Shown: piece by piece, positions 4,350 through 5,710 of the stretch
How positions within the stretch are numbered: the stretch's first letter is position 1
Layout of the letters: each line of letters starts with the position of its first letter
Virus genome (UHGV): UHGV-0176688
From: a virus
DNA length: 41,778 bases
Direction: 5' to 3' (one strand)
Notes under the pieces: model-generated
What the model saw: the letters and a program-made list of their open reading frames with translations, nothing else
Databases searched by the model: none
What the model was told of the DNA's origin: nothing
Made by a program: the position numbers and the translations under genes

Positions 4350-5710
4350 GTCTGGTTAATTGGGAGGAGCACCGCGCCCGCTTTATAGCGTTGCGTGAAG
4401 AAAAAGGGATCACTGTAAAGGAATACTGTGAGGAGCATGGCCTTAGCTTCAATACAGCCAGAAAGCATCTCAATATGAAAAAAAATGAGGTGCGGTCGCA
4501 GGTAAAGACAACAAAAAAAAGCACCAAATCACCTGAAAAAAAACGGGCAGGAAGAGCAACAAAAAAGCTGGAAGAGGGTGCAGAAAAAACAAAATTTACA
4601 GAAATTGACAATTCGCAGGGTGCAGGTTCTTTCCGAAGTATGCCAAGAAAGAAAACTTTGGATCATGAAAATAATACCAATAATAACAATGAGATAAAAG
4701 AATCTGTCAGGAGATCATTGCGCGAAAAAATGGCGAAAATGATCCCCGAAGAAGATAAAAGCGCCCCAAAAATTGAGGGATCTTCAGCAATGATCCCTAG
4801 CGGTGCTGTGCAGCGTGCCACATTGCCCACTACGAATGTGGCTCGCGATATGATGAAGAACGGCGCAGAAGAACACCTGCGGTTAGCAATTCAAATGGCG
4901 CAAGAGCGCGCACTTCAGTATCAAAGCATTGTTGATCAGGAGGCCGAACGTCTACAGGCGGAAATAGACGCCTTGGGCGATAAAGAGCCAGAAGGAATGC
5001 ACCCTGGGCAGCGCCTTCTCGGTCTAATCAGTGACGCGGCCTACTACATGAATGATTTTATCAGTAGGTTGGCAGCTATATATCAGTCCGAACAAAAGCT
5101 GCGACAGGGGGATGAAAAGCTTCGTCAGAGCGCTCGCCAGCAAGCATTCAAAGAGGCTGAGGCCAGAGAAAAACTCGAATTAGCACGCCTACAGGCCGAA
5201 CAGCGTGGCAAAGAGATTGAATATCGCATTGGCGCTGACGCACGCGCTGCCAGAGTTATCGCCGCCGCTATACGTATGCGTGAGCGCGAGGAACTGGATG
5301 ATATCGGTGTTGCTGAATACATCGAGCGCCAGGGGGGCAGCGTCCCGGCTATCCTCGCGGCGCGCGCGGCGAAAGCTATCACTCTTCTCGAACCACCTGT
5401 TTCTGACGTCAATGATGTTGATGATGAACAGCTGGACAAAGAGGCAAGGGAGTTTGCAACGCTTCAGGCTAACCATCCGCAATGGCTGGCAGAGCGCCGG
5501 GCGGATGTGGCAACCATTGTTGAAGAATTGGGGTGCGGAGATTACGACCGCAATGGCGAGCGTAAAGCTGGAGAATTCGAGGCCAACGACGAAGAGCTGG
5601 ATATTGACCCTTCGGCAACGGCTGAAATTTACGGTGATTATGATGCATCTGATGCAGGGTATGACGCCGGAGATGATGATATCGCGATAGAACCGCCGGA
5701 GGATGATTAA
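4346..5710 (+). CDS. pacA: Terminase small subunit PacA-like
   Basis: N-terminus MSLVNWEEHRARFIALREEKGITVKEY...FNTARKHL resembles P1 PacA; acidic C-terminal tail; internal GATC cluster. Confidence 0.8.
   Translation: MSLVNWEEHRARFIALREEKGITVKEYCEEHGLSFNTARKHLNMKKNEVRSQVKTTKKSTKSPEKKRAGRATKKLEEGAEKTKFTEIDNSQGAGSFRSMPRKKTLDHENNTNNNNEIKESVRRSLREKMAKMIPEEDKSAPKIEGSSAMIPSGAVQRATLPTTNVARDMMKNGAEEHLRLAIQMAQERALQYQSIVDQEAERLQAEIDALGDKEPEGMHPGQRLLGLISDAAYYMNDFISRLAAIYQSEQKLRQGDEKLRQSARQQAFKEAEAREKLELARLQAEQRGKEIEYRIGADARAARVIAAAIRMREREELDDIGVAEYIERQGGSVPAILAARAAKAITLLEPPVSDVNDVDDEQLDKEAREFATLQANHPQWLAERRADVATIVEELGCGDYDRNGERKAGEFEANDEELDIDPSATAEIYGDYDASDAGYDAGDDDIAIEPPEDD
4661..4795. other. Candidate pac packaging site (GATC cluster inside pacA)
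   Basis: Five GATC sites at 4661, 4713, 4741, 4779, 4792 within 135 bp, about tenfold over expectation; P1 pac is a Dam-methylated hexamer cluster inside pacA. Confidence 0.5.

Follow-up and report, generated by a model that had tools for sequence, protein, structure and literature searches.

A conserved cluster of GATC-containing repeats in pacA is a candidate pac site of D6-like phage-plasmids

Introduction

Bacteriophage P1 provides the textbook example of a methylation-gated packaging signal, its pac site, on which P1 transduction and phagemid tools are built. Here we analyse a cluster of five GATC sites inside pacA, the gene of the small terminase (pacase A subunit), in UHGV virus genome UHGV-0176688, a stretch of 41,778 nucleotides hereafter called the window. 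Its pacA region (4346-5710) is 99.4% identical in nucleotide sequence to that of Escherichia phage D6, a P1-related plasmid prophage, and on this identity the window is a D6-like phage-plasmid. We argue that the cluster is probably the recognition part of a D6-type pac site, made of five copies of the motif AAWGATCCCY written into the codons of a PacA linker and acting by a P1-like mechanism.

The P1 pac site spans 161 bp and holds seven hexamers that can be methylated by Dam (PMC10028697). Hemimethylated pac sites are believed to be bound and then cut once methylation has gone further, and destroying the hexamers by synonymous changes lowered the wild-type titre, which the authors of that study attribute to reduced packaging (PMC10028697). 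In the P1 sequence NC_005856, the TGATCA/G hexamers lie at nucleotides (nt) 195, 202, 214, 229 and 325, 337, 348 of pacA (span 195-351), with a further TGATCG at nt 376. A site for integration host factor (IHF) is annotated over pacA nt 256-268, and primary cleavage occurs at nt 275-285.

D6-like phage-plasmids occur commonly in E. coli and Salmonella and sometimes carry resistance genes; of 5,426 complete E. coli genomes, 81 have the region studied here on a plasmid. Neither D6 GenBank record carries a pac annotation. We found no discussion of a D6 pac site in the literature searched, which did not take in the D6 genome paper (Gilcrease and Casjens 2018), where an earlier description is possible. 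A published survey scored the P1-g2 subgroup as lacking pacA (PMC7969092). This subgroup is taken to include D6-type elements, and the score is probably due to D6-type PacA being only 21% identical to P1 PacA; both the homology and the site are thus easily missed. Knowledge of the D6 pac signal would improve the prediction of what D6-like elements transduce and would help to design D6-based delivery vectors orthogonal to P1. It would also reveal how a terminase site that overlaps the coding sequence of the terminase itself can evolve in its recognition sequence and two-arm layout.

Results

Conservation of the GATC cluster in pacA

The five GATC sites lie at 4661, 4713, 4741, 4779 and 4792 (pacA nt 316, 368, 396, 434 and 447) and are spaced by 52, 28, 38 and 13 bp. 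Their density, 5 sites per 135 bp or 37/kb, compares with 3.2/kb for the window (135 sites in 41,778 bp), which is an excess of about 11.5-fold. The first-pass annotation of this DNA had placed five sites within 135 bp in the 5′ third of pacA, at roughly tenfold over expectation. We find them at exactly these positions, and the cluster occupies nt 316-450 of the 1365-nt open reading frame (ORF), at the end of that third. Nowhere else in the window do at least four GATCs fall within 135 bp. The window total is, if anything, slightly low (135 against 160 ± 14 in shuffled sequences). As a separate observation on GATC distribution, a 3.2-kb interval (15850-19065) has no GATC at all, against an average of one per 309 bp (chance ~0.004), with a normal GC content (39-52%).

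For comparison, pacA sequences were drawn from plasmids, IMG/VR contigs, genomes and assemblies. The D6 clade (at least 66% identical) is represented by 31 distinct sequences in three deep sub-lineages, with ~73% PacA identity. In 29 of the 31, GATC is present at exactly the five positions, and the other two each lack one site. The remaining GATCs of pacA (nt 589, 634, 681, 1032, 1147 and 1180) are lineage-specific. Only ~40% of the DNA around the five sites is invariant. Over pacA nt 150-480, the three sub-lineages are 60-62% identical and 11% of 4-nt windows are invariant, yet all five GATCs are kept (roughly 2e-5). Synonymous positions within the GATCs are fixed (Asp as GAT, Ile as ATC twice, Gly/Arg as xGA twice), as compared to 38% identity at synonymous third positions gene-wide. 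At nt 368 and 434, the encoded residue switches between Arg and Gly while the GATC is unchanged. These features support the view that the five GATCs are under selection at the DNA level.

The cluster could in principle be a by-product of coding or composition (M-I-P twice, D-H and G/R-S, or chance in an A-rich linker) without any function as DNA. Two facts would fit such an origin: judged by sequence statistics alone the cluster is marginal (scan-corrected P ~0.10), and the M-I-P peptide is conserved in most lineages. This explanation is nevertheless very improbable. It has to contend with the fixed synonymous positions and the Arg/Gly substitutions that retain GATC, as well as with a linker predicted to be disordered and otherwise hypervariable. 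Moreover, the peptides encoded at the elements vary in relatives (MIP, KIP, VIP, EKIP, KRSP, NDP) while AWGATCCC stays, which argues that the DNA and not the peptide is kept. The proven P1 pac shows the same phenomenon with a different hexamer. On the conservation evidence we reject chance as the full explanation. The cluster is convincing because its position is homologous to that of P1 pac and because its five sites are conserved in diverged relatives.

Among the pacA copies, that of Shigella dysenteriae (L015, CP026821, 1501-2865) is a frameshifted pseudogene. It carries two 1-nt deletions in or beside GATC elements, one of which destroys site 396; this loss is consistent with relaxed selection on a dead prophage. 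An annotation problem was also observed at this place in the gene. In L013 (CP057742, 1885-2865; protein clusters P0023 and P0045), pacA is annotated as starting only at codon 129, an internal ATG that lies within the repeat cluster. Such calls, which concern ~310 member sequences, drop the helix-turn-helix (HTH) domain and the first two elements.

An extended motif in mixed orientation

Fifty-eight oriented elements from 10 lineages (34-99% PacA identity) yield the asymmetric consensus AAWGATCCCY. As these elements were gathered by a GATC search, the GATC core of the consensus is invariant by construction; the conservation of the sites across relatives is independent evidence. Of the cluster sites, 72% read GATCCC; for control GATCs taken from these loci the figure is 12%. 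In the window, the elements at 4661, 4713, 4741, 4779 and 4792 are oriented −, −, +, − and +. All five, as well as a distal site at 4408, have the GATC core, so that a Dam target is present in every repeat as in a P1-type pac. Independently, a repeat finder returned AATGATCCC at 4738 and 4789, with inverted copies at 4710-4719, 4713-4721 and 4405-4415.

Elements 2 and 3 form an inverted pair 28 bp apart, and element 5 is a direct repeat (D7) of element 3 at a 51-bp spacing. The GATC of element 2 survives replacement of R by G, and a site at the same position and in the same orientation is found in lineages down to 42% PacA identity; in element 3, Ile is always ATC. The −/+ pair (368/396), with a spacing of 27-28 bp, is kept in five of six relatives (L007, L066-L069), again down to 42% PacA identity. 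The same five relatives have a positional equivalent of element 5, a + element situated 51 bp downstream of the pair here and 63 bp downstream in the relatives. Three of them (L067-L069) are unassigned contigs from assemblies or metagenomes, and the others are plasmids of Enterobacter and Raoultella. The relative with 34% PacA identity (L070) lacks the −/+ pair arrangement.

The site at 4408 may correspond to a distal sixth pac element (4405-4414). In all 31 D6-clade sequences GGGATCAC is invariant there, including at synonymous positions (GGG ATC ACn), whereas the next synonymous position varies. In Enterobacter L007, the nearest outgroup, the same G-I-T is written GGC ATT, without GATC. Furthermore, 4405-4414 forms an inverted repeat (I2) with element 5.

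Comparison with P1 pac and other described sites

The order of genes and sites in the window, lpa, pacA, pacB, c1 (7247-8284, minus strand) and rox, is the same as in the D6 records and parallels that of P1. PacB is 99.8% identical to D6 PacB and 56% identical to P1 PacB. Like P1 pac (Sternberg and Coulby 1987, 1990; Skorupski et al. 1992, 1994), the cluster is located in the 5′ part of pacA, upstream of pacB and ~4 kb from lox/rox: rox is 3.7 kb downstream of the cluster, and P1 pac is ~4.0 kb from lox. Both are arrays of short repeats with GATC cores set in a poorly conserved PacA linker, and both phages encode their own Dam-type methylase. Unlike P1 pac, which has seven near-palindromic TGATCA/G hexamers in two arms (4+3) around an IHF site and a ~10-bp cleavage zone, the D6-like locus has five asymmetric AAWGATCCCY elements in mixed orientation, in one cluster, with no left arm and no clear IHF site. 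The parallel with P1 pac drawn in the first-pass annotation therefore holds for the part of pacA concerned, the gene order and the GATC in every repeat; it does not extend to the hexamer sequence or to the two-arm layout. The two-arm layout of a P1-type pac (4+3, flanking a ~90-bp central cleavage region) is absent from the D6 clade; its outgroups, like P1, are two-armed. Most likely, the D6-like site works like that of P1 without being a P1-type site in the strict sense.

A pac site inside the terminase gene is not peculiar to this family. Phages P22 (gene 3), Sf6 and SPP1 (gene 1) package by the headful mechanism and also carry pac within the small-terminase coding sequence. To our knowledge, these pac sites are not GATC arrays and have no known methylation gating, unlike the D6-like candidate. 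The small terminases of P22, Sf6 and SPP1 are unrelated in sequence to PacA.

PacA protein

PacA matches the terminase family phrog_1711 (E 3e-183) and aligns with P1 PacA collinearly over its full length (BLASTP E 3e-11, 21% identity). Full-length homology, an N-terminal HTH and a position upstream of pacB assign it, from its sequence, to the P1-type small-terminase family. PacA had no Pfam match, and a profile search of solved structures gave no match. The overall quality of an AlphaFold (AF2) model computed from a 17-sequence alignment is low (mean predicted local distance difference test (pLDDT) 69, predicted template modelling score (pTM) 0.30), so that only local features can be used. 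The model predicts an N-terminal three-helix HTH-like bundle (residues 6-42; helices 6-20, 24-31 and 35-42; pLDDT 72-87), an unstructured linker (residues 47-158; pLDDT <50 over 47-151) and a long helical C-terminal part. The repeats fall at residues 106-150, within the predicted disordered linker, whose weak coding constraint leaves room for signals in the DNA.

The putative recognition helix differs between lineages that use different repeats. In GATCC-type lineages it reads NTARK(H/Q/R), with GRK in the two most distant ones and STGRKK in the most distant. In TGATCA-type lineages it reads NTARR(E/Y), with NTVRRQ in Leclercia.

Proposed mechanism and role of methylation

By analogy with P1, we infer PacA binding, cleavage, the direction of packaging and methylation gating as follows. 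The pacase, PacA (probably via its N-terminal HTH) together with PacB, would bind the repeats on concatemeric DNA and cut near them. Headful packaging would then proceed to the right, across pacB and c1 towards rox. Because of the GATC core, binding or cleavage would depend on adenine methylation, carried out by both host Dam and the phage Dam (40760-41665). Newly replicated, hemimethylated copies would be spared, and cutting would be confined to late infection.

The phage-encoded Dam named in the first-pass annotation is borne out by the protein matches. The product of 40760-41665 matches Pfam PF02086 (D12 N6-adenine methyltransferase; E 2e-56) and scores 249 bits with NCBIfam TIGR00571 'dam', for a cut-off of 115. 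Its best match among solved structures is E. coli Dam (E 2e-58). It is closest to E. coli Dam and DpnM, both GATC-specific, and the DPPY motif is present.

Clustered GATCs are also classic targets of SeqA and of Dam-dependent regulation. The repeats could instead form a methylation-sensitive control element of the Dam/SeqA type, unrelated to the start of packaging, that would set the timing of pacA/pacB expression or serve sequestration after replication, with the real pac elsewhere. Like the SeqA-bound arrays of E. coli oriC and P1 oriR, the cluster groups GATCs whose methylation state would change after replication. It contains GATC pairs 13 and 28 bp apart; in a SeqA-bound or origin-type array, pairs at most 31 bp apart would be expected on one helical face, within a replicon with iterons and DnaA boxes. 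The gene order makes additional control of pacase action or expression plausible. The ORFs of lpa and pacA overlap by 4 nt (ATGA), which leaves no room for an intergenic late promoter like P1 LPpac, and pacA without a late promoter of its own. The pacase genes may thus be co-transcribed with lpa, and post-transcriptional or methylation control of cutting would then become more important. Unlike the SeqA arrays, however, the D6-like cluster sits in a terminase gene and not in the replicon, and it has conserved, asymmetric flanks. Its inverted pairs of an asymmetric 10-bp motif suggest recognition by a sequence-specific protein and not by SeqA, for which hemimethylated GATC is enough. In addition, no promoter-like context is conserved, the position coincides with that of the mapped P1 pac, and the motif type changes together with the PacA HTH. 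A purely regulatory role is therefore unlikely. No iterons or DnaA boxes were noticed near the cluster, though no dedicated search was made for them.

Overall, the reading of the cluster as a candidate methylation-controlled pac site, as proposed in the first-pass annotation, is supported by its position and synteny, by its deep conservation as DNA, by the extended motif that its elements share and by the Dam gene in the window. Several observations weigh on the other side. In the D6 clade there is no GATC between nt 63 and nt 316, the cluster is single and the left arm is missing; Sternberg and Coulby are said to have found in 1987 that P1 needs both arms for efficient cleavage. None of the window elements is TGATCA or TGATCG (TGATCC occurs three times, TGATCT and AGATCC once each). 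No match to WATCARNNNNTTR with at most one mismatch is present in pacA nt 100-520 of the window, and no conserved IHF consensus lies in or near the cluster. Random placement of 135 sites in 41.8 kb puts at least five in some 135-bp span in ~10% of trials. M-I-P, encoded twice, and the other peptides could be under some constraint at the protein level. The co-variation of the HTH helix with the repeat motif is a lead and not a proof, since it reflects a single phylogenetic split. Finally, the phage Dam is presumably GATC-specific, by family membership only.

Family-wide pattern and architecture of the site

In all 19 tabulated pacA lineages or copies, P1 included, GATC density is higher at nt 140-480 (12-26/kb) than in the rest of the gene (2-10/kb). 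TGATCA is used by the Pantoea, Serratia, Citrobacter and Leclercia lineages and by P1, and GATCC(C) by the D6-related lineages, in which AAWGATCCCY elements are found down to 34% PacA identity. Outside the D6 clade proper, every lineage has a two-armed site, its left arm covering nt 155-270 and its right arm nt 320-500. Compared by sequence alone, the candidate pac sites of the relatives (Enterobacter, Raoultella, Klebsiella, Pantoea, Serratia, Citrobacter and Leclercia plasmids) resemble the D6-like one in being GATC-dense at nt 140-480, and differ from it by a left arm in place of the sites at nt 63, 316 and 434, which are specific to the D6 clade. D6 sites 368, 396 and 447 align with right-arm sites of the outgroups. 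The cluster thus appears to be mainly the ancestral right arm, rebuilt with added elements. We looked in 4346-4950 for another repeat family that could replace the left arm and found only A-tracts and short two-copy matches.

A side observation concerns the left arm in Pantoea and Enterobacter plasmids (L011, L017, L019-L022). There, pacA nt 154-240 contains six or seven TGATCA recurring exactly every 12 nt, which appear in the protein as repeats of the dipeptide 'DH' (GDHNHDHSSDHASDHQNDH); in this case a DNA signal has shaped the protein sequence.

These comparisons suggest, tentatively, a specific history. The D6 clade would start packaging at a one-armed pac site of AAWGATCCCY inverted pairs, having lost the left arm and gained nt 63, 316 and 434, with a change from TGATCA to GATCC(C) that tracked a change from ARR to ARK in the PacA helix. 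If true, such a re-engineered site would make the family a natural series in which to study how DNA specificity and site architecture change in a methylation-gated terminase. The family could also be a source of orthogonal pac/pacase pairs for delivering phagemids.

The functional site is probably larger than 4661-4795 and would include the sixth element and a conserved island at 4593-4611. Apart from the GATC elements, the island holds the only invariant runs of at least 6 nt in pacA nt 150-480. It contains two ATTkACA half-repeats 10 bp apart, lies in an otherwise hypervariable part of the linker and is kept in relatives with 55% PacA identity. Three intervals are candidates for the cut: ~4593-4655, 4665-4712 and 4745-4778. 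The second, a 52-bp gap, holds TAACAATGAGATA and a contig break; the third lies between two inverted pairs.

The first interval is linked to another layout, in which the cluster would be the right-hand arm only, like P1 HEX3, with the cut upstream near ~4593-4655 and a left arm either lost or reduced to 4405-4414. We regard this layout as possible though doubtful. It agrees with the two-armed state of all outgroups and with the alignment of 368, 396 and 447 to the right arm. In the two-armed Enterobacter L007 the island is conserved between the left and right arms, and the protein alignment, weak in this region, sets the island opposite the IHF and cut region of P1. The synonymous positions of 4405-4414 are, moreover, conserved in the D6 clade only. 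The alignment is, however, unreliable in a low-complexity linker, and the D6-specific sites 316 and 434 suggest local rebuilding, so that the pairs 316/368 or 434/447 could flank an internal cut. A break within the cluster itself is seen in one assembly. This contig break, the only one among ~30 IMG/VR loci, is in one genome (taxon 2537562191), where L056 ends with ...CGGATCATGAAAATAA and L047 starts with ATGAAAATAATGC... (pacA nt 329/320, window ~4665-4674). The two contigs share a 10-nt overlap just 3′ of the first GATC, and the break could be a physical DNA end (pac terminus) or an assembly accident. A 32-nt pattern used to scan metagenomes for DNA ends retrieved only 8 loci, none of them with an informative end.

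The invariant TGACAA of D6, read on the opposite strand, gives TTGTCA, a sequence present at the P1 cut. We treat this likeness as a coincidence, and it does not help the right-arm layout, because the Pantoea, Serratia, Citrobacter and Leclercia lineages do not have the motif. As for IHF, among the equivalents of 4684-4696, that of L006 alone comes within one mismatch of the consensus. Perfect consensus matches at 4919 and 5059 are both outside the cluster, and that at 4919 is not conserved in L005 or L006.

Features of the region

The features discussed above are listed in Table 1.

Table 1. Coordinates of the repeat elements, genes and associated features in the window
Feature	Position	Strand	Description
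Element 1 (GATC 4661)	4658..4667	-	CATGATCCAA; codes L-D-H; D6-clade-specific; GGATCA invariant in 31/31; Asp always GAT
Element 2 (GATC 4713)	4710..4719	-	AATGATCTCC; codes R-S (G-S in relatives); GATC in 30/31; inverted repeats I4, I5
Element 3 (GATC 4741)	4738..4747	+	AATGATCCCC; codes M-I-P; GATC in 30/31; direct repeat D7, inverted repeat I4
Element 4 (GATC 4779)	4776..4785	-	GAAGATCCCT; codes G-S (R-S in relatives); GATC in 31/31, kept through G/R replacement
Element 5 (GATC 4792)	4789..4798	+	AATGATCCCT; codes M-I-P; AATGATCCC invariant in 31/31
Possible distal sixth element (GATC 4408, pacA nt 63)	4405..4414	-	AGTGATCCCT / GTGATCCC; 253 bp upstream; G-I-T codons of HTH domain
Conserved DNA island	4593..4611		AATTTACAgaaatTGACAA (also AATTTACAnnnnnTGACAA); candidate central bending/cleavage region
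IHF-like TAACAATGAGATA	4684..4696	+	Resembles annotated P1 pac IHF site AAACAAAGAGTTA; two mismatches to WATCARNNNNTTR; weak
lpa (late promoter activator)	3957..4349	+	Pfam BPP1_LPA, E 5e-57
pacA (small terminase / pacase A subunit, 454 aa, 1365-nt ORF)	4346..5710	+	ORF list; D6 identity; phrog_1711; BLASTP to P1 PacA
pacB (large terminase: ATPase + nuclease)	5710..7218	+	phrog_2 TerL; Terminase_6N match weak
rox site for Dre recombinase	8495..8526		Exact match to annotated D6 rox
Dam-family N6-adenine methyltransferase (301 aa)	40760..41665	+	Pfam, NCBIfam and structure matches

An Rfam search of 3800-5800 gave no match. Upstream of lpa, the ORF at 2881-3456 matches a Tad2-like (Thoeris anti-defence 2) Pfam domain with E 1e-9. 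Many D6-related plasmids keep this ORF at the same place, some of them under the annotation 'MW1434 family type I TA system toxin'. Further upstream, five tRNA genes (Arg-tct, Tyr-gta, Thr-tgt, Ser-tga and Met-cat) occupy 776-2425. Despite the near-identity of pacA, this block is unlike that of D6, whose record lists Asn, Thr and Ser tRNA genes at other offsets.

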